Assembly: GCA_963700035.1 (NCBI GenBank)
Contig: CAVOWE010000018.1
Span: 170,378-234,377 of the forward strand
DNA from: an uncultured Thermoleophilia bacterium
GTDB taxonomy: Bacteria > Actinomycetota > Thermoleophilia > UBA2241
DNA: 64,000 nt
Direction of reading: 5' to 3'
The translations under genes and the position numbers were made by a program. Below, piece by piece: positions 5,276 to 21,661 of this stretch (position 1 is its first letter; every line of letters starts with the position of its first letter). The notes under the pieces were generated by a model. That model saw nothing but the letters and a program-made list of their open reading frames with translations, ran no database searches and was not told where the DNA came from.

Positions 5276-6604
5276 GTGGCGCTCCCCGCCCTGGACGAGT
5301 TCTTCTCGCTTCCCGCGGCGCAGCGAGGCTCTCTGCTCGTCGAGGGCATCCGCGAGGCGCACCGCTACCACTTCGCGCGCAACGCCGCGTACCGGCGCAC
5401 CGTGAGCGCGCGGGGCGTCGGCGCGGAGGTCACCCCCGAGCGCTTCCAGCGCCTGCTGAGACCGGCGGCCCTCACCTTCAAGAGCTACGTGGAGACGATC
5501 GGGCCGTTCCCTCAGGACCATCCGCGCGCCTTTCTCGCCTGGCTCGGCGATCAGCTCTCGATCGCTCTGCCCGCGGATCGCGGGAGCGCGCTGCGGCGAC
5601 GGTACCTGACGATGGAGGGCCTGCTCGCCGACACCGAACGCATCTACGCCGATCTGGGTCTGGAGATGGTGACCTCCAGCGGGACCTCCGGTATCGCGAG
5701 CGTCGTCGCCCGCGACGCCGTCACCGTGGACCTCGCGGTGCGTTCGTTCTTCGCCGGCATCCACCGCGCCTGGGGCATCGCCCGCGACGCCGCCCTGGTG
5801 TTCGTGATGCCGGAGGACACCAGGGTGGCCATGGCCCGATCGGCGCGCCTCGGCGTCAAGCAGCTCGACTGGGCGGCGGGGACCAGCGTCTCCTACACCA
5901 TGCCGTTCTCCGCCACCCCCGACCTGATCCGCTTGCGGGCCGGGCGCACCTTCCACTCGGGCCCACGGGGGGTCGTGGAGAGTCGCGTGCTCCACCCGGT
6001 CCTGGCCTGGGCCGACAGGCGCTGGGTGGCGCGCACGTACGTGGACCGCACGCTGGCGCGCCTGCGCGCGCTCTCGGCCGCCGGCCGACCGCTGATGCTG
6101 CTGGGCGGACAGACGCAACTGCACGCCGTAGCCCTGAGGGCGCGGGTCGCGCTTCCCGCGGGCAGTCGCGTGGCCACCGGTGGAGGGAGCAAGGAGGAGT
6201 ACCCCTTCACGTCCGCCCAGATCCGCGCCGACCTCGAAGTCGCGTTCGGCGGCGTACCGGTCGCCGATGTCTACGGCATGGCCGAGGCCGACTGGGCCGC
6301 GTTCGAGTGTCCTCGCGGCAACTATCACATCCCGCCCTGGGTGTACGCGGTGGTGACCGACGACGCCGATCGCGTCGTCCCGGGACCGATGGCTGCGGGG
6401 ATGCTGGCCTTCTTCGACCCCGTGGCCGGCGGCGACCTCATCCCGCCCTTCTTCCAGAGCGCCGACCACGTGACCCTCGTGAACGGCGCCGACCAGTACG
6501 ACGCCGCGCTGGCCTGCGCGTGCGGCTACGACTCCGCGTACATCGCCGGCGGGATCCGGCGCGTGGACCTCATGGACGAAGCCGGCTGCGCGGCGCAACT
6601 GTGA
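5276..6604 (+). CDS. LuxE-like acyl-protein synthetase (adenylate-forming enzyme)
   Basis: 442 aa with a TSSGTSGIASVV adenylation P-loop-like motif. The overall layout resembles the LuxE family. Its stop overlaps the GTG of the next gene (GTGA). Confidence 0.55.
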   Translation: MALPALDEFFSLPAAQRGSLLVEGIREAHRYHFARNAAYRRTVSARGVGAEVTPERFQRLLRPAALTFKSYVETIGPFPQDHPRAFLAWLGDQLSIALPADRGSALRRRYLTMEGLLADTERIYADLGLEMVTSSGTSGIASVVARDAVTVDLAVRSFFAGIHRAWGIARDAALVFVMPEDTRVAMARSARLGVKQLDWAAGTSVSYTMPFSATPDLIRLRAGRTFHSGPRGVVESRVLHPVLAWADRRWVARTYVDRTLARLRALSAAGRPLMLLGGQTQLHAVALRARVALPAGSRVATGGGSKEEYPFTSAQIRADLEVAFGGVPVADVYGMAEADWAAFECPRGNYHIPPWVYAVVTDDADRVVPGPMAAGMLAFFDPVAGGDLIPPFFQSADHVTLVNGADQYDAALACACGYDSAYIAGGIRRVDLMDEAGCAAQL

Positions 6605-8218
6605 GCCCGGAGCGCGTGAACGGCGACGTGCGCGACGGCTTCTGGCTGCCGCGGAAAGTGCGCCAGGAGGTCCTGAGCCGGGCCACATGGCAGACCGCCC
6701 GCCTCTGCGGCGGCGCACTCGTGGAGGCGGGGGCCGCTCGAAGAGGCACGGCGGGCACCCAGGATGCCGCCGCCGTGCCGATCCGCTGGCCGCGGCTCTC
6801 GCCGCAGCAGTGGACCGCTCTGCTCGCCGCGCTGCAGGCAGCTCGCGGCGTGGCCGGCCCTGAGGCCGCCGGACGCTGGGAGGCCGCCCTTCTGAAGGCG
6901 CTCCCCGGCCTGGCCGGCGAGATGCCGGACATGCTCGCGCGGCTCTCGGCCTCCACGGGCTACAGCCCCGGAGATGCTGACCACGGCGCTGGCCGGCGGG
7001 GACCTGGTCGATCCTTCCTCGCTGGCCGCGGCGATGGACTTCCGGCCGACGTGGGCGGCGGCCTCGAGCTGGGTCACGCATCCGCGCCTCGGAGGCCGCA
7101 TCCGCTTCTTTCCGCACGGTCTCGCGGGGCGGGCCAGGGCCGTGCTGACTCCGGACGCGGCCCTCTTCCGCCCCGCCCCGCCGGTGGACCTCACGCTGGG
7201 CTTCGCGGCGGGGAACGTGCCGGGCACCGCGCTCATCATCGCTCTCCTCGGCGGTCTGGCCGGCCACGCAGCGTCCGGCGACGCGCGCGCGCCGGCCGTC
7301 CTGGTGCGCAACAGCCGCCACGAGCCGCTGTTCACCCCGTGGGTGTTGTCCGCCGTGGAAGCGGTGGACCCCGATCTGGTGGCCGGCACGGCCGTCATGA
7401 TCTGGGACTACGACGATCCTGGACTGCAGGCGCTCCTCCTGCGCTCGGCCGGACTGATGATGGCGGCCGCGGACGACGCCACCATCGCGGCTCTCGACGC
7501 CCGACGCGCGCGCTCCGCCCCCGGCCTGCGCTTTCACCGGCACGGCCACAAGGTCAGCTTCGCCACTCTCGGCGCGGGTTGGGCGACGCGGCCTCGTGCC
7601 CCTCGCCTGGCCGCACTCGACTCCAGCTTCTGGGACCAGAACGGCTGCCTGTCCGCCCGCGTGCACTTCGTGGAGGGGAACGCGTCCGCATACGCCGAGG
7701 CGCTCACCGGGGAGATGCGGGCTCTCAGCCGCGAACTGCCTCGCGGGACGACCCCGCGGCGCTACACTCGGCGCGCCTTCGACGCCTACGCGGCGCTCAC
7801 GGGCGCGGGCGGCGTGCGCCTGTTCTCAGACTACGACGACGAGTTCGCCGTCGTCGTCGACGGACGCTCCTGGGATGCCGGCACGCTGCGCAGGGCGGCC
7901 AACGCCTGTCAGGGGCGGGTGGTCGTGGTGCGGCCGGTCCGGGATGTGATGGATGTGCCCCGCCTGCTGCAGGCGCTGCCGGCGGGCAACCTGCAATCCA
8001 TGAGCCTGCTGCTGGACGACGAGCGCCTGGAGCCGTTCGCCCAGGCCGTGGGAGCCTGCGGCGTGACGGCACTCCGCAGTCTGGGGCGCGGCGCCTTCCC
8101 TCAACTGGCCTGGTCCTGGGACGGCCTGCTCCCACCGGACGTGGGATCCTTGCGCCCGCCCGGGCACTTCACTACCATCGAGCCCGATCCGCCAGTCACG
8201 TCCATTCTGGAGGTGTGA
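6601..8218 (+). CDS. LuxC-like acyl-CoA reductase, interrupted by an apparent frameshift near 6960-6975
   Basis: GTG at 6601 overlaps the LuxE-like stop (frame of track ORF 6307..9882, reading VSPERVNGDVRDGFWLPRKVRQEV...). The protein-like sequence then continues in the frame of track ORF 6974..8218 (LTLGFAAGNVPGTALI...SARVHFVEG). Judged LuxC-like by size and aldehyde-dehydrogenase-like architecture. Confidence 0.5.
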
Positions 8219-10123: not shown

Positions 10124-12971
10124 GTGCTCGGGGCGTTCACCATCCGCAGCCGGGACAAGACCGAGGAGTTCCCGGTCACGCAGGCCATCGTGAACGTGGG
10201 CCGAGCCGCCGACAACGACCTGAGCCTGCCGTACGCCACCGTCTCTCTCCACCACGCGCGCGTCCTCGCCGACGCCTCGGGCTGTCGCGTCATGGACCTG
10301 GGCAGCTCCAACGGCACCCGCCTCAACGGCGTGGAGATCCCGGTCAAGGTGGCTCAGCCGCTTCGTGAGGGCGACCTCGTCGAGATCGGGCCGTTCCAGC
10401 TGCGTTTCCACGCCTCGCCGGGTCGCGTCGCTGCGCCCGGCCAGGCCGGGACTCCCGCCGCGGTGGCCGCGCAGGCGCGAGCGGGTCACACCGTCGTCCT
10501 GCCTCCGGACCTGCCCGCCCGTCTGATCGTGAGCACCCCCGAAGGGACCCGGGAGTTCCCCCTCAAGAAGGACTCCGTGACCCTGGGCCGCGAGTCGGAC
10601 AACGACATCGCCATCGAGGCCGAGGCGGTCTCCCGCCATCACGCCGTCATGAAGCGCCGCGGCCCCGCGTACCTCATCACGGACCTGGGGAGCACCAACG
10701 GCCTCAACGTGGCGGGGGAGCTGGTCAAGGAGAAGCTGCTGGCTCCGGGCGACTTCGTGTGCATCGGCCATAGCGTCACGCTGGAATACCGGGGGGCCGA
10801 GGCCCTCGCGGCGGACATGGCCGCGGCTGCTCTGGTCGGGGCGGGCGCCTACGGCCCGGGGCCCGCCGCCGGCGCGCCTGGCGAGCAGGCTCCGGCCGTC
10901 TTCGATATCCGCGACGGACACTCGCTCATTCTCGGCCGCGGCGACGAGACGAGCGTCCACATGGCCCACCCCCAGGTGTCCGCGCAGCACGCCGAGGTGC
11001 AGCGCCAGGCGGACCAGTACGTCATTCGCGACATGGGCAGCAGCGCCGGCACCTACGTCAACGGTCAGCTGGTGAGCCAGCAGCCTCTCCGCGAGAACGA
11101 CGTCATCCGCATCGGCCCGAACCGGCTGGTGTTCCAGGGCGGGCAGCTGCGGATGGTGAGCGAGGAAGGATGCCTGCGCCTGGACGCCTTCCACCTGAGC
11201 AAGGTCGTCGGCAAGGGTCAGCGCATCCTGCGGGACGTCTCGCTCTCCATCAAGCCGCAGGAGTTCGTCGCCGTGGTCGGAGGCAGTGGCGCCGGCAAGT
11301 CGACGCTCGTGAACGCCCTCTGCGGCTTCAAGCCGGCCACAGAGGGCGCCGTCCTGCTGAACGGCGTCGACCTCTACGGCAACTTCGACGCCTACCGCAA
11401 CGAGATGGGCTACGTCCCTCAGGACGACATCATCCATCTCGACCTCCCGGTGTCCAAGGCCCTGGACTACGCCGCCCGCCTGCGCATGCCCGCCGATACC
11501 AGCCGGTACGAGCGTGAGCAGCGTGTGCAGGAGGTCATCGACGAGCTGGACCTCAAGGCCTGCGCCGAGCGCACCGTCAGGCAGCTCAGCGGGGGGCAGC
11601 GCAAGCGCGTGTCCATCGGCGTCGAGCTGCTCACCCGGCCGAGCCTGTTCTTCCTCGACGAGGCGACCTCCGGGCTCGACCCGGCCACCGAATCGCAGAT
11701 GATGAAGCTCCTGCGCAAGCTGGCCGACCAGGGACGCACGATCATCCTCATCACGCACGCCACCAAGAACGTCATGGCGTGCGACAAGGTGGTCTTCCTG
11801 GTGCGTGGGGGTCAGCTCGCATTCTTCGGTCCTCCGGAGGACGCGCTCAAGTACTTCGGCGTCGAGGAGTTCGACGAGATCTACGAGAAGCTGGAGTCCG
11901 GGGCCTCGCCCGACGAATGGGCGCAGCGCTTCCTCGCCTCCCCCCAGCTTCAGGAGTACGTGGTGCGACCGCTGAGCGAGGTGGCCGGGGCGTCAGCGGG
12001 GCTCTACGGCGGCCGCCTCGACGGCGGCAACGGCGGCGGCGCCCGGGCGCGAGGCGGGCCGGCGGCTCCCGGAGCCCACATCAGGCGCTCCTCGTCCTGG
12101 AAGCAGTTCCTGATCCTCTCGGGCCGTTACCTCGACATCATCCGCCGCGACAAGAAGACGCTGGTGCTCCTTCTGGCCATCTCGCCGGTGCTCGGGGTAC
12201 TGGACTTCGTCACGTGGAAGCGCAATCTGTTCGACCCAGTGGACGGGAGCGCCACCAAGGTCGTGACGATGCTGTTCATGGCCTGCCTCATCGGCGTCCT
12301 GGTCGGCACCATCACCTCGGTGCGTGAGATCGTCAAGGAAGACCCCATCTACCGGCGCGAGCGCATGGTGTGCATCCAGGTGTTCCCCTACGTGGCCTCG
12401 AAGATCGCCGTGGGGTCGATCTTCGCCCTGTACAGCGCGCTCGTCCTCTTTCTGTTCAAGATCGGCGCCGTCGACTTCGGCCACCTGAGCGGCATCGGGT
12501 ATCTCGCAGCTCCTGATCACTTTCGTGCTCTGCACGTTCGCAGGGCTCATGTGGGGGCTTCTGGTATCGGCGGTCGCCCCCACCGAGGATCGCGCCATGC
12601 TGCTGGTGATCCTGGTGCTGGTGCCCCAGTTCATCTTCTCGGGGGGCATGATGCCCGTGTCCGATCTGGGGGTGGCGGGCAAGGTCTTCGGGACGCTGAC
12701 GTCCACGCGCTGGGGGCTGGGGGCGATGGCCACGGTCGCGGAGATCAAGACCGGTGCCGGCAAGGCGGCCGACATGTCGGACACCGTGCTGCCGGGGATC
12801 AAGGGGCTGGAGACTACCGCGGAGAAGGTGGCGCTGGTGCACTCGCTCGACAGCCAGTACGGAGCGATCTTCAACGTCAACATCGCCTTCTACTGGGCGA
12901 TGTCGCTCGTCCTGATCGCGGCACTGACGGTCATCATCTTCCTGCTGCAGAAGCGAAAGGACACGTTCTGA
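10124..12971 (+). CDS. Three FHA domains fused to an ABC transporter ATPase and an ABC-2 (ABCG/White-like) permease; apparent frameshift near 12500-12530
   Basis: Three FHA domains (MLGAFTIRS...GCRVMDLGSSNGTRLNG; LITDLGSTNGLNVAG; VIRDMGSSAGTYVNGQ). Walker A GGSGAGKST, signature LSGGQRKRVSIG, Walker B LFFLDEATSGLD. Permease TM helices. The C-terminal permease part continues in track ORF 12525..12971 (LVPQFIFSGGMMPV...FYWAMSLVLIAALTVIIFLLQ). Confidence 0.8.
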
Positions 12972-13254
12972 CCGGGCTGGCCGCGCCGGCGCCGTTCGGC
13001 CGCGGCCGCGGTGCCCCACGGCGCCGCCCGACACTTGTCTTTCCGCGCTGCTGCGAGAGAATGGGTGACAGGACGGCGCCTCGGGCAGCGACCAGAGGGG
13101 GGCAGGTGTCTGCTCATCCGGACAACGAACGCCGGGAGGCGATCGGGCCCCGCCCCGCTGCGCGGGTGGCTACGGGACGCGGCCGCGACGCCTTCATCCA
13201 TCTGTCGCCGAAGCGCGGCGAAAGCCCGGCGCCGAGAGGCGCGACGGGGGGGTC

Positions 13255-15634
13255 ATGGCAGACGAGCTGATCGGGCGCACGCTGGGGCGCTACAAGATCA
13301 CCGCCCTCGTGGGACGCGGTGGCATGGCCACGGTCTACCGGGCCACGCATCCCGGTCTGGAGCAGACCGTGGCCGTCAAGGTGCTGCACGCGCACATCGC
13401 GACCGACGCGGACCTGCTCGGCAGGTTCCAGCAGGAGGCGCGGGCGGTCGCGGCCCTTCGCCATCCCAACATCGTGCGCGTCGTGGACTTCGACTGCATC
13501 GACAACGTGTACTTCATGGTGATGGAGTACATCGACGGTCTCACCATGTCCGCGCACCTTCGCGATATGGCTGCCAAGGGGCGTCGCATGCCGGTCGCCG
13601 AAGTGCTGCGGGTCTTCGAGCCGCTCTGCTCCGCGGTGGACTACGCGCACGGGCAGGGCATGATCCACCGCGACATCAAACCGTCCAACGTCCTGCTCAC
13701 CGCGCAAGGCGAGCCGGTGCTCACCGACTACGGTATCGCCAAGATGATCGGGGTCACGCAGCATACGGCTGCCGGCACGGTCATGGGTTCTGCCTTCTAC
13801 ATGTCGCCGGAGCAGGCCCAGGGTGTCGCGGTGGACGGTCGCAGCGACATCTACTCTCTCGGCGTCATGCTGTTCGAGTCGCTGGCTGGGCAGGTGCCGT
13901 ACGAGGGCGACACCCTGGCGACCGTCCTCGTCAAGCACATCACGGCGCCGGTGCCGGCCGTGTGTCCGCTCAACGACGAGCTGCCGCCGCTGCTCGATGG
14001 CCTGATGCGCGTGGCCCTGGCCAAGGATCCGGACGAGCGCTTCCAGACGGGAAAGGCGCTGGCGGCCGCGTTGCGGCAGGGGCTCGCGCCGCTCGCCGCG
14101 CAGAGCAGCGCCGTGGCGGCGAATGCGACGCGGGTGGAGCGGCCGCCGAGCGGTGGCGCGGCGCCGCAGGGCTTCACGCGCGTGGAGACGCCGACGCCGG
14201 CGCCGGCGAAGCCGCCGCGCGAACGGGCGACCGCGCACGATGTGTTCATCAGCTACGCGGCGAGCGACAAGGCGGTTGCCGATGCTGTCTGCACGGCGCT
14301 CGAGAGCGAGAACATCCGCTGCTGGATCGCGCCGCGCGACGTACTGCCCGGCCAGAGCTTCGCGCGGGCTCTGGTCAACGCCATCCATGAGGCTCGCGTG
14401 TTCGTCCTCGTGTTCTCGTCGGCCACCAACAACTCCCAGCAAGTGGAACGCGAGCTCGACAGGGCCGCTTCCTCGCGACTGCCGATCCTCCCCCTGCGCG
14501 TGGAGGACGTGCTGCCGCGCGAGTCCATCGAGTACTACCTCGCCGGCCAGCACTGGCTCGACGCGCTCACGCCGCCGCTCGCCGACCATCTTGAACGCCT
14601 CACCGTGGCGATCGCGGCGCTGCTGCAGCGGTCGGCGCCGCCGCTCGCCGAAGGCCCGCCGGAAGCAACGGCTTCAGAGCCGGCCGTGTGGGCGACCGGC
14701 ACTCCAGCGGGAACAGCCTACGAGCCGGCGCCGGCGGCGACCACGTACGAGCCCGCGCCGGAGCCCGAAGCAGAGGCGCCGGTGGCTGAGGCCGAGCCCG
14801 CGCCGGAGCCCGAAGCAGAGGTGCCGGTGGCTGAGGCCGAGCCTGTGCCGGAGCCCGAAGCAGAGGCGCCCGTGGCTGAGGCTGAGCCCGCGCCGGCGGC
14901 GACCACGGATGAGCTCGCGCCGGCGACGCAGCTCAAACCGGAGGCGCCTGAGGCTGAAGCCGAGCCTGCGCTGGAGGTAGAGGCGCCCGAGCCCGTCGGC
15001 GCACCCGAGGCGGCAGTGGCGGTCGCGGGCCTGCAGGCGGCGACGACCTACGAGCCGGCGCCGGAGGCTGAGCCTGAGCCCGAGCCGGCAGCGGAGCCGC
15101 CAGAGCCCGAAGCCGAGCCTGAGGCCGTGCTCGAGCTCGAGCCTGAGGCGCTTGAGGCTGAGGCCGAGCCGCGAGCCGGAGGCAGAGGCTCCGGGGATCG
15201 TGCCCCTGCCGGAGCCTGAGGCCGTGATCGAGCCCGAGCCTGAGGCGGAGGCGCCTGAGGCCAGGGCCGAGCCCCCGTCGGACTTGACGACTCTCGAGCG
15301 GCCGGTGGAGGCGACCGAGCCGCAGGCCGCCACGACCTATGAGCCGGCGCCCGTGCCGGCAACGGGAACCTCCGAGCCGGCGTTCGCCGCCGAACCGACG
15401 GTGATGGCCGCGGCTGCGACGGCGGTGACACCCGGCGACGGTCCGACGCCCGTGGCTGCGACCGTGCTGGTGGCGGAGTCGCCGCCGGCCGGCGTGCCGG
15501 CCCTGGGCGAACGGGCCGGCGAAGCGTCAGAGCCTTCCCGGCAAGCGCTTCACAAGCCCACGCTGATCGCCGCGGCGGCTGTGGGAATCGCGTGGATCGT
15601 GATCCTCCTGGTCATCGACCAGGTGTTTCGCTAG
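13255..15634 (+). CDS. Hanks-type Ser/Thr protein kinase fused to a TIR domain, a Pro/Glu/Ala-rich repeat linker and a C-terminal transmembrane anchor; apparent frameshift in the repeat region near 15150-15220
   Basis: Kinase motifs LGRGGMATVYRA, VAVKVL, HRDIKPSNVLL, DYGIAK, SPEQ. TIR_2-like block HDVFISYAASDKAVADAVCTALESENIRCWIAPRDVLPGQSFARALVNAIHEARVFVLVFSSATNNSQQVERELD. Repeats EPAPEPEAEAPVAEA. The terminal helix PTLIAAAAVGIAWIVILLVIDQVFR is in track ORF 15152..15634. Confidence 0.8.
14749..14883 (+). repeat. Three tandem copies of a 45-bp coding repeat (gagcccgcgccggagcccgaagcagaggcgccggtggctgaggcc; encodes EPAPEPEAEAPVAEA), with degenerate copies further downstream
   Basis: Read directly from the sequence. 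Lies in the kinase linker. Confidence 0.8.
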
Positions 15635-15717
15635 CTCCTTCGACGGCGGACCGCCGAGCGCTCGCGCCGGTCCGCCCTCTTCGCCTCAGCGGGTGACGTA
15701 CGGCTGGGTCTGCGGCG

Positions 15718-16947
15718 CTACGCGGAGCGCGGCTGGCTGCGGGCGACGGGCGGCGTCCACCACGCCAGCGCGACGACGACCAGGTCGACGCCCAGCGCCA
15801 CCAGGACCCACAGCGGGGTGTCGGGCGGGTAGAAGAAGGCCCAGGCGAAGACGGCTGCCGTGGCGAGGCCCGCGACGATGCCGAGCGCGACTCTCGCCTG
15901 GCCGAGCGCGCCGCGCCGGCGGCTTGGAGTCGCAGCCCGCATGACGACGTAGAACTGGACGGCGAACAGCACCCCGCCGCCGAACACGACCAGCCACTTG
16001 AGCCACGAGGCGCCGCCGCCTGCCGTTTCGGCCATGCTCTTCACGCGGTCGAGGTTGACGCTCGCGGCTTTCGCGAGGCGTGGCGCTTCGGAGGACTGCT
16101 TGAGGTCGGTGAGCACGTCGATAGCAGCCGAGTCGTCGCCGTTCTCGGCGTCGATCAGCGCGAGTCCCATCTTGGCGTAGTCGTTGGTCGCCGTCTCGTT
16201 CGAGGCGGTGAAGTCGGCCTCGGCTCCGTCGAGGTCGCCCTTCTCGAGTCTCGTCATCCCGCGCTGGTAATACGCGGCCGCGAGGTTGGCGGCCGTCCTC
16301 GCCACGCCTTCATCAGGCTTCGACGCCACGATGTCCTTGAGCGAGGAGATGCCTTCGTCGTACTCACCCGCGGCGCACTGGGCCGTCGCCAGGGCCAAGT
16401 CGGTCTGCGGGCTGGCCGCGACGGCGGCGGACTTCTCGAAGTACGCCAGCGCGTCGGCGTACTGCCCGTCCCGTGCGGCGATGAGGCCGAGGTTGTACAG
16501 CGCCGCCGCCTTCACGCTGTCGCCGTTCTTCGTCGGCGGCGTGTCCTGCGCCTTGCGCGTGGGCGCCGCGGCCTTGTCCGTGTTGTCCTGGAAGAGGTAG
16601 TCGGCGCCGATATTGAGGTCGGCGCCTCGGTAGCGCTGGTTGAGGCGTAGCACCTTCTGCAGCAGCGGCAGCGCCTTGCCGTAGTCGCCGGTCTTCACGT
16701 AGCACACGGCCAGGTTGTTGAGGGCGTCGGTGTCTGAAGGATCCAGCTTGACGGCTTCCTTGAACAGCGCCGTCGCCCGGGCGACGTCGCCGGCGGCGAG
16801 AGCCTCGCAGCCGAGGTTGTACGGGTGCTTCGTGGCACCGGGCGCGGGCCCGGCCGTCACGGCCAAGCCCGCGAGGACCAGCAGGACGGCGACGCCCGCG
16901 AGGGCGCAGGCCCGCCGGCATCTGCTCAGAATGTGGTAGGTGGGCAT
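15718..16947 (-). CDS. TPR-repeat membrane protein (N-terminal signal/TM, TPR region, C-terminal multi-TM region)
   Basis: Real start MPTYHILSRCRRACALAGVAVLLVLAGLAV (ATG reverse complement at 16945-16947) lies inside the longer track ORF 15718..17541. TPR-like segments ALFKEAVKLDPSDTDALNNLAVCYVKTGDYGKALPLLQKVLRLN. Confidence 0.7.
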   Translation of the reverse strand: MPTYHILSRCRRACALAGVAVLLVLAGLAVTAGPAPGATKHPYNLGCEALAAGDVARATALFKEAVKLDPSDTDALNNLAVCYVKTGDYGKALPLLQKVLRLNQRYRGADLNIGADYLFQDNTDKAAAPTRKAQDTPPTKNGDSVKAAALYNLGLIAARDGQYADALAYFEKSAAVAASPQTDLALATAQCAAGEYDEGISSLKDIVASKPDEGVARTAANLAAAYYQRGMTRLEKGDLDGAEADFTASNETATNDYAKMGLALIDAENGDDSAAIDVLTDLKQSSEAPRLAKAASVNLDRVKSMAETAGGGASWLKWLVVFGGGVLFAVQFYVVMRAATPSRRRGALGQARVALGIVAGLATAAVFAWAFFYPPDTPLWVLVALGVDLVVVALAWWTPPVARSQPRSA

Positions 16948-16958
16948 GGTGGTTCGGC

Positions 16959-17357
16959 TCACGGCGTCATAGGCTGCGCCTGGCAGGAACAGGGCTGGTC
17001 CGACTGGCAGGTGCAGCTCGACACGCCCTCGCAGGTACAGACCGCGTCGCAGGTGCATGCTCCTCCTCCGCCTCCACCTCCCGAGTCCGCCACGCAGCTG
17101 CAGGCGGCCACGGACTCGCAGGTGCACACCAGGTTGCAGGTGCAGACGAGATCGCACGTGCAGAGGGCGCCGCCGAACGCGTCGCGCCCGGTGAGCTTGG
17201 TCTTGGTCGCGTGGGAGCGCGTCTCCTTGCCGGCCTTCTGGGTCTTCTTCGGTGTCTTCTTGGGCCCGGAGACCTTGCGCGAGGGATCCTCGGGCGCGAC
17301 GAAGACCTCGGGATCCGGATACTCGTAGTCGGGCTGCGGCGCGCTCCAGTGCAGCAC
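16959..17357 (-). CDS. Small Cys-rich CxC-repeat peptide (candidate RiPP precursor: K/P/T-rich leader plus a core with eight C-x-C motifs and a Gly7 spacer)
   Basis: Track ORF of 132 aa. The core reads CTCDLVCTCNLVCTCESVAACSCVADSGGGGGGGACTCDAVCTCEGVSSCTCQSDQPCSCQ. Codon third positions are strongly G/C, as in genuine genes here. It sits between the radical-SAM gene and the TPR gene in one orientation. Confidence 0.45.
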   Translation of the reverse strand: MLHWSAPQPDYEYPDPEVFVAPEDPSRKVSGPKKTPKKTQKAGKETRSHATKTKLTGRDAFGGALCTCDLVCTCNLVCTCESVAACSCVADSGGGGGGGACTCDAVCTCEGVSSCTCQSDQPCSCQAQPMTP

Positions 17358-17510
17358 CTCGGGCGACGCGCTCGACGTGGGCGCGGCCTTCAGGGTGTCG
17401 TCGGGCGCGCTCTCTCCGGCGCGGAGGGAAGCCCATTCGACCGGCGCCTCGCTCTCGTAGATCGAGAGCTTGGGCGACTCGTAGCCGCCGTCGCGCGAGG
17501 CCGCCGGCGT

Positions 17511-18914
17511 CTAGACCCTCGCTGCGCTGGTCGTCGGACACCGGATCACCTCCTCGAGCTGGTCCAGCGTGAGCCGCCGGTTGATCTCACAGCGCGCGAC
17601 CACGGCATCATCGGCGCCCGGATAGAGCCGCTTGGACGGGCAGTCGCCTGCACAGTGGTACTTGGCGAAGCAGCGCGCGCAGCGCGGCGCGTCGTTGACG
17701 GTGAGATGGCGCAAGTGCGTCGACCCGCGCGGCATCGAAGGCGAACGACCGGTGCGTGGGGTCGTAGGAGCCGTAGATGAACGTGTCGGCGCGGGAGTCG
17801 TCGCGGCCGGTGACCTCGTAGCAGGCGGTGACGTCGCCTTCGGTGGTGATATTGAAGCTGGGCCTGCTCGCCTGACAGAACGAACAGGCCAGCGACGATT
17901 GGTGCGCGCCGGAGTAGGCCACCTCGACGCCGTGACGCGCGGCGTACTCGCGGCACTCGCGAAACGCCTCGACGAAGCGCTCCGCGTTCGGCGGCTGCAG
18001 GCCATTGCTGATGGAGCGGCCGCAGGCGAAGAGCGGTTCGAGGTGGATGGTGTTGAGCCGGTAGGTGTCGACGAGGTGTCGTACCGTCTCCAGGGCGTGA
18101 TCGAGCGCGTGGGACGTGCACGTGAGCCTGGTGCCCAACGTGCAGTCGCTCTCTGAGAGGCGCGCGAGCGTACGCTCGACGGCGGCCGACGAGGCGCCGC
18201 CGCCGGCCCGCGGCCGCAGGCGGTCCTGCACGGCCGCCGGGCCGTCGATGGACACCATCACCGACGTCATGCTCTCCGCCAGGTACTCCCGCATGGCGTC
18301 GTCCACGACGCCGTTCGTCGCGGTGCCGGTGGAGAGCTCGAGGGCGTGCTTTTCGCAGCGACGCCGGGCGTGAGCCACGCAGTTCTTCAGGGCTCTCGCC
18401 CGCGAGCGTCGGCTCACCGCCGCCGTGGAAGGTGACGGTCACCTCTGGCTGGCCGCTCGGCGACGGCGTTGTCGACGACGAAGTCGATGGCATCGAACGC
18501 GACCTGCTCGTCGAGGTAGCGCGGCTGCTCGCCACCGGACGCATAGCAGTAGACGCAGCGCAGGTTGCAGGCCGTGGTGAGGAACAGCGTGACGGCGGTG
18601 GGCCGGAGTGCGGCCGGCGGCGGGTCGTCGGTCACTGGTCGGTCGGAGGCGACAGCCGACGTCAGGGCCGGCGCTGCGCCGCTCGCCCGGCGTCTCCCGT
18701 GCTCCTTGCCGATGAGCTGAAGCTCCACGAGAAGATCCAGCACCTCGCGCGTGCCGGCGTTGCGAGTCACGGCGCGCTCGGCGGAGATGTCGGCGAGCAG
18801 GTTGAGGGCAGCGTCGTTCACCACCACGCTGGTCTGGAGCAGAGGCGCGTACACGAGGTGGTCGCGTCCGCGCGGCAGCGAGAAGACCTCGGTGGCCAGC
18901 CGGTACCTGGTCAC
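17511..18914 (-). CDS. Radical SAM enzyme with C-terminal SPASM domain (peptide-maturase type), broken by about three apparent frameshifts
   Basis: Spliced across track ORFs 18414..19094, 17546..18544, 17608..18417 and 17511..18005. CxxxCxxC motif TTACNLRCVYCYAS. GGEPTL motif VTFHGGGEPTLAGE. LSTGTATNGV...MVSIDGPAAVQDR. SPASM cysteines CSFCQAS...GDVTACYEV...CARCFAKYHCAGDCP. The GTG at 18914 overlaps the stop of the upstream PqqD-like gene. Confidence 0.75.
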
Positions 18915-19344
18915 GCCCGTTCTCCCGGGATACCGTTGCCCGACCCGTAGACGCCGAACACGAGACCTGCCCCCGAAAGGGTCTGGAGGCAGTCCCTGGT
19001 GTCGGCGCGCGCCGCGGCCGCCGGGATGCCGTACGCGGCGCTGAGGAGGGCGGCGAGGTCGTCCACAGTACGCCGCCCGTCGACGCCGCGCCATACGAAC
19101 GCCGCCGACCGGTTCAGGCGGAAGACCGGTCCGTGCGGGTCGACGGGCGTGGCGCGGAGTTCCACGTCACGCCCGCGGGCTGTCTCGACGAGGTTCTCGG
19201 CGCGTCGCGGCCGGGCCGTCCCAGCCGACGCGGCAGGGCCGTTCCGCGCGCTCCAGAGGCGACCTGTGGCGAGCGCCACGGCGCCGCCGGCGACGGCCAC
19301 GAGGAACGTCTTTCTGGTCGTCGCCCAGCTTGGCCCGTCCACGC
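18911..19344 (-). CDS. PqqD-like peptide-chaperone (RiPP recognition element) protein with an N-terminal hydrophobic segment
   Basis: C-terminal part of track ORF 18911..19777: VDPHGPVFRLNRSAAFVWRGVDGRRTVDDLAALLSAAYGIPAAAARADTRDCLQTLSGAGLV. This matches the PqqD-family pattern (LN.sA..iW...DG.rTv.ei...L...Y.v....a..D...fl..L...GL). The start is assigned to a GTG near 19332-19344. Confidence 0.5.
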
Positions 19345-19513: not shown

Positions 19514-21003
19514 GTGAGCGGCGCGAGACCATCGCGCCTGGATCTGGGGGTGGTGCGAATGAGACCGCGATTTCGCAGCGCAAGCACGGACACGTCCTAC
19601 GATCGCCGCCGGGGATGGCGCTCCGTCGGCCGCGGTGCCGTGGCCACACTCCTCCTCGTCGGCATTCTGCTGGTCACGGTCTTCGCCGCGCAGGCCGCCT
19701 CGGCGGCCGCGCCGAAGATGGCGAAGCTCACGGCGTCCGGGCCTTTGGAGAAGCCTGACGGCGGCGTGCCGGTACAACGCGGGACGAGCCAGTCCGAGAG
19801 TCTGCCGCCGGTCGTGCCCGGCGTTACCGCGAGCCCGTCAGGAGGGCCCGGCGTTGGCGCTGCCGGCACGATCTTCTACGACGGGTTCGAGGGGAGCATC
19901 GCGTCCTGGACCACAGCGGGTGGTAACGATCCGACGTGGGCGTGGTTCACGTATCGGCCCTACGCGGGGTCGTGGTCGGCCTATTGCGCGGGGTGGACCG
20001 GGAGCGGGTTCAACTCTCCGCCCACTACCTACTACAACAACATGAACGCCTGGCTCGAGGCGGGGCCGTTCAATCTCTCGGGCGTCACCTCGGCGACCCT
20101 CGCCTTCAAGCTCTGGCTCAACAGCGAGATGAACTACGACTGGCTGTACTGCATGGTCTCGGTCGACGGCCAGCACTACTATGGACCGGGCGACTCGGGC
20201 AACAGCCAGGGCTGGGTCGATCGAAGCCTCGATCTCACGAACGTCCCGACCCTCGGCAACGTCTGCGGCCGCAGCCAGGTGTGGATCGCCTTCATCTTCA
20301 CCAGCGACGCGTCAGGTACCGCCGAAGGCGCCTACGTTGACGAGGTGAGCATCACCGGCAGCGGTGGGGCGGCGGCGAGGTGGGGCTGTCTTGGATGGCG
20401 ATCGCTCGATAGTGCCTTTCGCGGGAAGGGTGGATCTCACGGGAGTACTCCTGGACGACACCTCCGGGTCCCTGCTGCCCAACCGGCAAGTGGGGTTGTT
20501 CTGGTCCCAGGAAGACAAGATCGACGGGACTTGGAATCTGTTTGAACACGTTCACTTCGTCGACGGGCCAGTACTCCATGACGGCCACCAACGTCCAGCG
20601 GCTCACCTATTTTGCCATGGTCTTCGCCGGTGACGGCCAGTACTCGGAGGGCATGGAGCAACCTGGTCAAGGTGATGGCACGCGCCAAGCTCACGCCTCC
20701 GGCCGTTCCGTCTCGCGTCCCCGCCTACCTCAAGATCACGAGCTGGGGCACGCTCAAGCCGCTGCACACGGCCGCGCAGAACAGGTCCAGCCACACCAAG
20801 CTCTCCGTCGAGCACTACTGCGGCGGCAGGTGGCGGCTGCAGTACGAATCGTTGTACGCCAGTCGTACCGCAACACTCCTCCGCGACCGATGTACAGCGT
20901 GGGCCTGCGCTACGCACCCGGCAAGTGGCGGATCCGCGCGGTGCACCGGGACAGCGACCACGCCACGACGACCTCGTCCTGGAGGAACTTCACGGCGAAC
21001 TGA
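19514..21003 (+). CDS. Secreted protein with a MAM/galactose-binding-like domain; reading frame switches several times (20350-20850)
   Basis: Signal peptide LLLVGILLVTVFAAQAASAAA, then GTIFYDGFEGSIASWTTAGGNDPTWAWFTYRPYAGSWSAYCAGW...YNNMNAWLEAGPFNLSGVTSATLAFKLWLNSEMNYDWLYCMVSVDG. Protein-like continuation in the frames of track ORFs 20364.., 20542.. and 20612.., ending ...WRNFTAN. Confidence 0.5.
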
Positions 21004-21574: not shown

Positions 21575-21661
21575 TGCCGAAGTGGCGGAACCGGTAGACG
21601 CGCTGGACTCAAAACCCGGTGCCCGAGAGGGCGTGTGGGTTCAAATCCCACCTTCGGCACC
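21575..21661 (+). tRNA. tRNA-Leu (anticodon CAA), type II with long variable arm, CCA encoded
   Basis: GCCGAAGTGGCGGAACCGGTAGACGCGCTGGACTCAAAACCCGGTGCCCGAGAGGGCGTGTGGGTTCAAATCCCACCTTCGGCACCA. The acceptor stem GCCGAAG/CTTCGGC, the D-loop GAACCGGTAG and the anticodon loop CTCAAAA are near-identical in layout to E. coli tRNA-Leu(CAA). Confidence 0.85.

Follow-up and report, generated by a model that had tools for sequence, protein, structure and literature searches.

A kinase-TIR protein with a C-terminal membrane anchor encoded beside an FHA-ABC exporter in an uncultured Thermoleophilia bacterium

The window analysed here is a stretch of 64,000 nucleotides from an uncultured Thermoleophilia bacterium (contig CAVOWE010000018.1 of assembly GCA_963700035.1). 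At positions 13255-15634 of its forward strand it carries a gene for a wholly cytoplasm-facing, tail-anchored protein, in which a Hanks-type Ser/Thr kinase domain, a short disordered linker, a TIR domain, an acidic tether of about 300 residues and one transmembrane helix follow one another. The family to which this protein belongs is real, conserved and rare, and it combines a Hanks kinase/FHA-ABC module with a multidomain bacterial TIR protein, which does not make it a new category. TIR domains are usually immune or NAD-cleaving modules. In the present case, the genomic context suggests a TIR domain engaged in ordinary signalling, not in phage defence. The reading that we favour, to which we would give slightly less than an even chance, is that a kinase of the PknF/Rv1747 type was grafted onto a tail-anchored TIR protein and that its phospho-threonine marks dock an FHA-ABC exporter encoded directly upstream. 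Within this composite, the step from the kinase to the exporter is the best supported and the chemistry of the TIR domain the least.

Architecture, conservation and origin of the protein

The gene and its parts are given below with their positions in the window and their strand.

13255-15634, + strand: whole kinase-TIR-tether-anchor gene, about 792 residues once the extra base at 15172 is removed; unbroken in the orthologues and in contig L091
13291-14061, + strand: Hanks-type Ser/Thr kinase domain, residues 13-269 (Pfam E 6.5e-44)
14062-14229, + strand: disordered kinase-TIR linker, with two T-x-hydrophobic-E motifs at T292 (NATRVERP) and T308 (GFTRVETP)
14242-14634, + strand: TIR domain; TIR_2 covers residues 330-438 and the modelled fold reaches about residue 460
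14641-15553, + strand: acidic, Pro/Ala/Glu-rich disordered tether of 304 residues, with five T-x-[YL]-E motifs at T487, T496, T597, T678 and T693
14748-14896, + strand: in-frame 45-bp tandem repeat, 3.3 copies, within the tether
15172, + strand: extra C, judged spurious, that causes an apparent frameshift; not in L091, P0002 or P0003
15560-15634, + strand: C-terminal transmembrane anchor, residues 769-787 (15560-15616), with the tail DQVFR and the stop codon

The kinase domain was predicted from the letters alone (hereafter the original prediction) to be complete, and this was borne out. The Pfam profile PF00069 matched residues 13-269 with 150.7 bits (cutoff 31.7), over profile positions 1-258 of 263, and the nearest solved structures were StkP, PknA and PknB (E 1e-56 to 1e-51), the range extending to 1e-46 when PknE is included. 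All residues of the catalytic set are present in the window protein, that is K42 (13378-13380), E61, H138-R139-D140 (codon of the Asp at 13672-13674), N145, D158 in a DYG motif, and S184-P185-E186. K42, E61, H138, N145, D158 and the SPE motif do not vary among 13 full-length orthologues, of which 11 keep D140. Judged by its motifs, the kinase thus appears intact and catalytically competent. In two orthologues from independent assemblies, P0007 (locus L085) and P0010 (L001), HRG and HCG replace HRD while the TIR domain is fully conserved, and both are probable pseudokinase-TIR proteins.

The lineage also encodes paralogous kinases (P0020, P0021, P0024, P0025, P0030, P0039), with catalytic domains 73-86% identical and differing C-terminal parts. 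The post-kinase parts comprise a zinc ribbon followed by a transmembrane helix and an ectodomain, a transmembrane helix with DUF1566, and soluble C-terminal regions. By these alignments, the kinase-TIR protein is to be regarded as a member of a lineage-specific kinase expansion with an exchangeable post-kinase part. The variety of C-termini among the paralogues also indicates that post-kinase modules are shuffled rapidly within the lineage.

A bacterial TIR domain follows in the same polypeptide, as had been proposed. TIR_2 (PF13676) matched residues 330-438 with 77.4 bits against a cutoff of 28 (E 1.7e-21), and TIR (PF01582) with 33.4 bits against 21.3. An AlphaFold model of residues 316-470, built from a 54-sequence alignment of the TIR subfamily, had a mean local confidence (pLDDT) of 88.7, a predicted TM-score (pTM) of 0.82 and the expected beta-alpha order of a canonical fold. 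Foldseek comparison with the PDB gave matches of probability 1.00 to the TIR domains of TRR-2, RPP1, MAL, SPARTA, AbTir and SARM1 (TM-score 0.66-0.75); these span solved TIR domains of every functional kind, and the comparison does not separate enzymatic from scaffold domains. The landmarks of the domain are the Box-1 serine S333 (14251-14253), the BB-loop R361-D362-V-L-P365-G366, Q396 (14440-14442) and E400 (14452-14454). The catalytic glutamate, which was to be looked for in an alignment, is E400 in the motif SQQVERELD. It is invariant in the 13 orthologues and the 54 members of the TIR subfamily. It aligns with E208 of AbTir and with the glutamate of three other assayed active TIR domains, as well as with that of PdTIR and of oyster TIR-STING. 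Sequence and profile alignments with PDB entries mostly end before or at this glutamate, and its position was settled by alignment with the assayed TIR sequences of Table S2 of PMC9092222.

The position of AbTir W204 is occupied by a glutamine (Q396), invariant in the orthologues, and close members of the subfamily have P, A or Q at this site. All TIR domains which make a cyclic ADP-ribose (cADPR) product have W, Y or F at the position of AbTir W204, and its mutation lowers cyclisation (10.1101/2022.05.07.491051). If the TIR domain is enzymatic, plain NAD+ hydrolysis would therefore be expected, not a cyclic signal, and production of a cADPR signal seems unlikely. The original prediction had presented bacterial TIR domains as NAD(+)-consuming or signal-producing; for this one, the signal-producing role is disfavoured by Q396. 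Box-1 S333, in DVFISY, corresponds to S567 of SARM1 (also in DVFISY), and the Box-1 serine, when phosphorylated, is reported in a 2025 preprint to block the NAD hydrolase (NADase) activity of plant and animal TIR domains.

After the TIR domain, the tether (residues 463-766) contains 69 acidic residues (Asp/Glu), 5 basic ones (Lys/Arg), 63 Pro and 77 Ala, and its length and sequence differ between orthologues. Once joined, the protein has a single hydrophobic segment, TLIAAAAVGIAWIVILLVI (residues 769-787, mean Kyte-Doolittle value 2.82), followed by DQVFR and the stop. A single transmembrane helix at the extreme C-terminus, a tail of 5 residues, and neither an N-terminal signal nor any other transmembrane segment are the features of a tail-anchored protein, and the alignment indicates that the anchor is kept in all full-length orthologues. 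Both the acidic repeat linker and the single terminal helix with 5 residues beyond it had been described from the sequence, and correctly so.

In the deposited sequence, the gene is interrupted. An open reading frame at 13255-15219 (+) encodes 654 residues and holds both Pkinase and TIR_2, and a second one at 15152-15634, in a different frame, ends with ...HKPTLIAAAAVGIAWIVILLVIDQVFR before the stop. Deleting one base at 15171/15172 (CCG-C-GAG) yields 792 residues and restores the local EPEPEAEAPG repeat pattern. Relative to the independent JGI metagenome contig L091, which is 96.7% identical over 15.6 kb and has an intact reading frame for 786 residues, the window contains seven isolated single extra bases in 15 kb (6966, 12507, 15172, 16972, 17713, 18395, 18459). 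Together with the kinase-TIR gene (15172), they break a LuxC-like gene (6966), the FHA-ABC gene (12507), the region of a Cys-rich precursor and a TPR protein (16972), and, three times, a gene of the radical S-adenosylmethionine (rSAM) family (17713, 18395, 18459); these neighbours are described below. The breaks at 6966, 12507 and 15172 are also evident against a further relative, L004. Since L091 is intact and seven isolated insertions occur in 15 kb, sequence comparison indicates that the frameshift at 15172 is an assembly error and not biology, in line with the original prediction, which had treated it as a sequencing problem.

It is very improbable that the kinase-TIR part and the transmembrane tail are not one protein, i.e., that they belong to two separate genes or to a chimeric assembly. 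Such an artefact would agree with the frameshifted state of the window as given and with the product recorded at NCBI/ENA (P0001), which comes from a 332-kb contig and is shortened to 654 residues. Against it, P0002 (720 residues) and P0003 (731 residues), both 91% identical to the window protein, are unbroken and have the same anchor, ten further full-length orthologues are likewise unbroken with the same anchor (12 in total, drawn from assemblies of JGI and ENA), and L091, nearly identical, gives one reading frame; the seven single-base insertions of the window count against it as well. A programmed frameshift or a pseudogene was also considered, and was rejected in view of the intact L091, P0002 and P0003 and of the six similar insertions that accompany the one at 15172. 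As deposited, P0001 lacks its true C-terminus owing to the assembly error, and the same contig has many such errors. The contig seems to carry about one indel error per 2 kb, so that other frameshifts and pseudogenes on it should be distrusted.

The search for the same fusion in related genomes was productive. Orthologues with both domains form about 20 clusters at 90% identity in a set of 5.8 billion proteins, and collapse to 5 representatives in a library of 1.84 billion representatives. Beyond these orthologues, at least 14 further representatives at 50% identity join Pkinase to the same TIR subfamily (local hidden Markov model scan and Pfam, best 150 matches). Their layouts include TIR-kinase, kinase-TIR-WD40, kinase-TIR-MORN, kinase-TIR-BON, kinase-kinase-TIR, kinase-TIR-3-keto-disaccharide hydrolase and TIR-kinase-kinase-SBP_bac_5. 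Among the metagenome loci whose TIR domains are most similar (80 in number), only 3 have a kinase. The combination of kinase and TIR thus looks recurrent, modular and rare at the level of sequence. A genome scan with the full-length alignment gave, among the matches listed, only unrelated kinases at 36-45% identity. Among the matches listed in a TIR-only search of the 5.8-billion-protein set there were short TIR proteins only and no orthologues, and this search fed the subfamily alignment. The claim that the architecture is undescribed stands in one respect, as our literature search found no paper describing a kinase-TIR fusion, the other layouts included, and the surveys found list TIR and Ser/Thr kinase as alternative effector domains; given the orthologues and other layouts above, the architecture is not unique.

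Two of these relatives deserve mention for their surroundings. The unrelated kinase-TIR-BON fusion P0360 lies near an FHA-PrsW-protease fusion (L089 1072-2316, - strand), a PP2C phosphatase (197-1063, - strand) and RuvABC, which is again a phospho-Thr signalling neighbourhood for a kinase-TIR protein. Another unrelated kinase-TIR fusion adjoins ribonucleotide reductase and PspA.

The closest TIR proteins without a kinase, 71-74% identical, are of about 320-380 residues and are encoded in L095 (374-1402), L096 (9929-11080), L097 (3426-4397) and L099 (1267-2238). In them, the TIR domain is followed by Pro-rich repeats of PPV/PEAVKPP type and then by a C-terminal helix (ALIAAAVVGASWLVVLIAVELLVR), a homologue of the window protein's anchor. 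The literature search found no description of such a kinase-less, tail-anchored TIR family. Their loci are orthologous to that of the window, as judged from a downstream gene cluster with 52-54% identity for the TPR protein, about 60% for the Cys-rich protein and 63-71% for the rSAM/SPASM protein, together with a PqqD-like gene. Neither a kinase nor an FHA-ABC gene was found near the kinase-less TIR genes, and their upstream genes have none in common with those of either type of kinase-bearing locus described below. We infer from these sequences that TIR, tether and anchor form an older, self-standing module to which the kinase was added later, a point that the original prediction had missed. 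In the simplest history, a tail-anchored TIR gene would have acquired a transporter-kinase pair on its upstream side, and the kinase gene would then have been fused to it in frame. The same TIR subfamily also occurs in tandem arrays, with six matches in 10.5 kb in L107, five in L165 and three in L162. These arrays differ from the single-copy, syntenic gene of the window, and the TIR type may serve in them a separate, possibly conflict-related purpose.

The upstream exporter and its possible link to the kinase

The gene directly upstream, placed there by the original prediction, is confirmed as an FHA-ABC transporter.

10124-12971, + strand: three FHA domains, ABC_tran and ABC2_membrane (ABCG-type exporter); directly upstream of the kinase-TIR gene, broken by the extra base at 12507
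10169-10390, 10556-10789 and 10922-11116, + strand: the three FHA stretches of the exporter (Pfam E 3.4e-50)

The transporter core is ABCG-like. In the sequence, the G-R, S-x-x-H and N-G signatures of phospho-Thr binding can be read in FHA1 and FHA2, and FHA3 has Ala in place of the Asn. The FHA domains matched FHA-1 and FHA-2 of Rv1747 (6cah, E 5e-9; 6ccd, E 5.7e-4), GarA and EmbR. Over the whole window there are one kinase, one TIR and three FHA domains, all of them within the kinase-TIR and transporter genes. The G+C content of the window is about 70%; a promoter and terminator scan of 12800-15800 found none and is uninformative at this G+C content. The sole match of an Rfam scan of the window was a tRNA at 21576-21659 (+).

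Eight kinase-bearing loci have a visible upstream side, and they fall into two types, with (type A) or without (type B) an upstream FHA-ABC gene. Type A comprises six of the eight (the window, L091, L004, L002, L003 and L087), in which the FHA-ABC gene lies directly upstream on the same strand with gaps of 136-283 bp. It is intact and adjoining in L091, L004, L002, L003 and L087; in L087, the final base of its stop codon doubles as the first base of the start codon of the kinase gene. The kinase-TIR orthologues of these loci reach down to an overall identity of about 55%. In type B (L001 with P0010, L086 with P0004), what lies upstream is unrelated and of housekeeping kind, with ybeY, era, PMT and a methyltransferase. 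A neighbour-joining tree of the kinase and TIR columns places P0004, P0009, P0007 and P0010 in one derived clade, and type A is therefore ancestral. In this FHA-ABC-less clade D140 is replaced by Gly in P0007 and P0010, R139 by Cys in P0009 and P0010, and activation-loop threonines are lost in P0010. The TIR residues S333, RDxxPG and E400 are unchanged throughout.

The same division is seen in the number of T-x-(V/Y/L/F/I/M)-E motifs, counted outside the kinase domain and compared with the number expected from composition. The window protein has 8 (7 in the linkers and 1 in the TIR domain) against 0.9 expected. Six orthologues for which an FHA-ABC neighbour is shown or assumed by close kinship have 6-10 motifs with fewer than 1 expected, and two relatives whose upstream side is not visible fall within the same range. 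Members of the FHA-ABC-less clade have 2-3. Paralogous kinases without TIR have the motif 1-3 times in the post-kinase linker, which fits a family-wide autophosphorylation or docking site.

On these observations the favoured reading can be set out as a sequence of steps. The anchor and the tether would keep the kinase and the TIR domain at the inner face of the membrane. The kinase would autophosphorylate threonines in the repeated T-x-(V/Y/L/F)-E motifs of both disordered linkers, and the exporter's three FHA domains would dock multivalently on these phospho-threonines, so that the activity or the clustering of the exporter would be controlled, as PknF does with Rv1747. The TIR domain would be the older, independently constrained part, most likely a membrane-proximal, self-associating module which unites kinase domains. 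It could also be a plain NAD+ hydrolase, cADPR signals being unlikely, and the kinase may silence it through phosphorylation of S333.

The downstream cluster and the competing explanations

On its other side, the kinase-TIR gene faces a convergent cluster resembling those for ribosomally synthesized and post-translationally modified peptides (RiPPs).

15718-19300, - strand: TPR membrane protein, putative Cys-rich precursor of about 188 residues, rSAM/SPASM maturase and PqqD-like protein, with several frameshifts in the window

The TPR protein has C-terminal transmembrane helices. The Cys-rich protein, with CTC repeats, has a long leader and a Cys-rich C-terminus (CTCDLVCTCNLVCTCESV...CTCDAVCTCEGV...CSCQ), and the best NCBIfam matches of the maturase are PapB/ranthipeptide-like and below cutoff. 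A corresponding cluster is found in L001 at 12123-15676, and also in L095 and L096. It adjoins the TIR gene in every locus with a visible downstream side, the kinase-less lineage included. At least the TPR, precursor and rSAM genes are present in the window, L091, L001-L003, L085-L087 and L095; in L096 only the PqqD gene was not detected, and the partial contigs L097 and L099 reach the TPR gene only.

Further genes of the locus were also noted. Just past the PqqD gene, 19514-20545 (+) encodes a secreted-looking protein with an InhA-like MAM domain (E 1.3e-9). Upstream, 5276-8218 (+) encodes a pair formed by a LuxE-like acyl-protein synthetase and a LuxC-like acyl-CoA reductase, also found in L004 (1-4956). 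In relatives, the Lux-like pair adjoins a giant fusion of 1330-1840 residues which combines FGGY kinase, 2-hydroxyacid dehydrogenase, SCP2, and class II aldolase or aminotransferase.

Several points weigh against the favoured reading. The most conserved neighbour of the gene is the convergent RiPP-like cluster, not the exporter, and the primary partner of the TIR part may lie in this cluster. The FHA-ABC gene does not adjoin in two of the eight loci, and since P0004 keeps an intact HRD in one of these, the kinase can persist without an FHA-ABC neighbour. The co-variation between exporter, kinase residues and motif number concerns a single clade, hence one evolutionary event, and is anecdotal. 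That T-x-hydrophobic-E is both the phospho-acceptor and the FHA ligand is a guess, and its enrichment could come from repeat duplication within the tether. As for the TIR chemistry, one large screen found 28 active NADases among 152 bacterial TIR domains (PMC9092222). In the same work (Table S2), AMN69_RS06490 of B. thetaiotaomicron 3731 is an active NADase and yields cADPR. This protein belongs to the same TIR subfamily (39% identical, E 6e-34; shared motifs CW(I/M)APRD, (I/L)P(F/L)R and HWL(D/N)A), and has Trp where the window TIR has Gln. Because of this low proportion of active domains and of this substitution, the catalysis of the TIR domain must be considered uncertain in both directions.

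Among the alternatives, the one that comes nearest to our favoured reading, although we hold it to be clearly less probable, is that the TIR domain is a scaffold only, which would homo-oligomerise in place of an ectodomain sensor and drive kinase dimerisation and trans-autophosphorylation, in a way reminiscent of the recruitment of IRAK by animal TIR assemblies. As the protein lacks an ectodomain, the association of the kinase must be governed by something in the cytoplasm, and the paralogues that are 73-86% identical in the kinase hold other modules in the place of the TIR domain. In addition, the sequences of Box 1 (FISY) and Box 2 (RDVLPG) are like those in signalling TIR domains of metazoans, and the best matches by sequence and by fold include Hydra TRR-2, MAL, MyD88 and TLRs. 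The glutamine at the position of the active-site aromatic, and the fact that most bacterial TIR domains screened were without NADase activity, point in the same direction. A pure scaffold would not need E400, which is invariant across the subfamily even in kinase-less members, and AMN69_RS06490 of this subfamily is enzymatically active. Moreover, the TIR domain is unchanged in the two orthologues that have lost the catalytic Asp of the kinase, and it must therefore do more than activate kinase catalysis; the module of TIR, tether and anchor also occurs without any kinase. It is unlikely, but less so than a role in defence, that the TIR domain works with the RiPP-like cluster (for example by conferring immunity to the modified peptide, sensing it or controlling its export), with the kinase and the FHA-ABC exporter added later for regulation and export. 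This would account for a cluster that stays adjacent in every locus with a visible downstream side, kinase-less ones included, while the upstream side was altered at least three times. An exporter is usually required by RiPP clusters, and most kinase-bearing loci have one of the ABC type on the other flank. The genes are convergent, though, and so are not transcribed together; since the loci all belong to a single, rather narrow lineage, the adjacency could be explained by shared ancestry alone; and TIR domains are not known to be functionally connected with rSAM peptide maturation. A partnership with this cluster and the favoured reading are not mutually exclusive.

The original prediction had brought up the prominence of bacterial TIR domains in antiphage defence, and this framing fared poorly. 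An abortive-infection function, with a kinase that senses infection or guards a host process and a TIR domain that depletes NAD+ or makes a nucleotide signal, appears rather improbable to us. TIR domains with a catalytic glutamate are common defence effectors, a phosphorylated Box-1 serine, as a known off-switch of TIR NADases, would suit a guard logic, and relatives of the subfamily stand in tandem arrays (L107, L165). The kinase domain strongly matches the PADLOC families PD-T4-6 and mad6 (E 2e-94), and the TIR domain has weak NCBIfam matches to retron-TIR (E 4e-6) and type III Thoeris ThcB4 (E 8e-5). The PADLOC matches of the whole protein reflect the generic kinase fold only and were rejected as evidence of defence, with no TIR model among the best 25 of 42 families. 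ThsB_TIR (PF08937) scored 18.4 bits against a cutoff of 21.2, ThcB4 21.6 against 220 and retron-TIR 25.8 against 600. No ThsA-, SLOG- or STING-type receptor or effector and no other defence gene was found in the neighbourhood, and a PADLOC scan of the neighbours (FHA-ABC, LuxE/LuxC-like, TPR, rSAM/SPASM and PqqD) returned only a generic ABC ATPase. The locus is syntenic with metabolic and housekeeping genes in orthologues from 55% to 99% identity, unlike defence islands, and independent kinase-TIR fusions lie among housekeeping genes or genes of Ser/Thr kinases, PP2C phosphatases and FHA proteins. The missing aromatic also argues against cADPR signalling. A more elaborate proposal, still a little less probable in our opinion, is a housekeeping, non-immune hub in which the membrane TIR domain would hydrolyse or sense NAD+ and be switched in cis by its own kinase through the Box-1 serine, while phospho-threonines of the tether would recruit and gate the exporter with its three FHA domains. 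NAD+ or redox state would then be coupled to export, possibly of the rSAM-modified Cys-rich peptide. If true, such a hub would be a prokaryotic forerunner of kinase-gated TIR enzymes (SARM1, plant TIRs) and of TIR-kinase assemblies.

Significance and comparison with known systems

Bacterial TIR domains are now studied almost wholly as antiphage or virulence NADases. By contrast, the TIR domain reported here lies within a conserved core-genome Ser/Thr-kinase/FHA module, keeps the catalytic glutamate without the residue associated with cyclic signals, and is tightly constrained also in proteins whose kinase degenerates. Provided that the proposed links hold, the protein would offer a one-polypeptide test system for the control of TIR domains by a kinase, so far reported only for plant and animal TIRs. 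It would also show the PknF/Rv1747 logic in a second and independent case, here with a multivalent docking tether as part of the protein, and tail-anchored TIR proteins would form a family of their own with a membrane-proximal role. The family is chiefly of value because kinase-TIR coupling, and roles of bacterial TIR domains outside immunity, could be tested in it in compact form.

The known system to which we compare the favoured reading is that of Mycobacterium tuberculosis, in which pknF and Rv1747 form an operon and PknF phosphorylates threonines in the disordered linker of the transporter, with positive regulation (PMC3138270, PMC3908365). Phosphorylation of Rv1747 promotes the formation of condensates or nanoclusters (PMC9312465). 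Our sequence comparison with Rv1747 covers its solved FHA fragments only and no full-length M. tuberculosis protein. In both systems, a Hanks kinase anchored by a C-terminal transmembrane helix and an ABCG-like exporter whose FHA domains are N-terminal are encoded side by side in the same direction. They differ in that here the transporter precedes the kinase and has three FHA domains instead of two, and in that the kinase of the window has a TIR domain and a 300-residue acidic tether before the anchor and virtually no extracytoplasmic segment.

With AbTir, BtpA and AMN69_RS06490, the TIR domain shares the TIR_2 fold, the Box-1 sequence F-I-S-Y and the glutamate of AbTir E208; it differs from them by Gln at the alpha-C aromatic (AbTir W204), by the fusion to a kinase and by the membrane tether. 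Kinase control of TIR domains is described in eukaryotes, where CPK3 acts on SNC1 and other plant TIRs, and CAMK2D and TBK1 act on SARM1 Ser567. These systems and the window protein have in common a conserved Box-1 serine by the active site (S333 here) and a Ser/Thr kinase coupled to a TIR domain. In eukaryotes the kinase and the TIR domain are separate proteins, whereas here they form one polypeptide, and the phosphorylation of S333 is hypothetical.

The systems of PD-T4-6 (Stk2-like), MADS Mad6 and Thoeris ThsB involve the same two domain superfamilies, with strong generic kinase matches. The locus of the window differs from them by its conserved core-genome position, by the lack of a partner effector and by a ThsB_TIR score below cutoff. 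Finally, the TLR/IL-1R-MyD88-IRAK pathway likewise associates a membrane-proximal TIR domain, with RDVLPG in Box 2 as in MyD88, and a Ser/Thr kinase, and this likeness is an analogy only. Animals use death domains on separate proteins and an extracellular receptor, whereas the protein of the window joins kinase and TIR directly, with neither an ectodomain nor a death domain.

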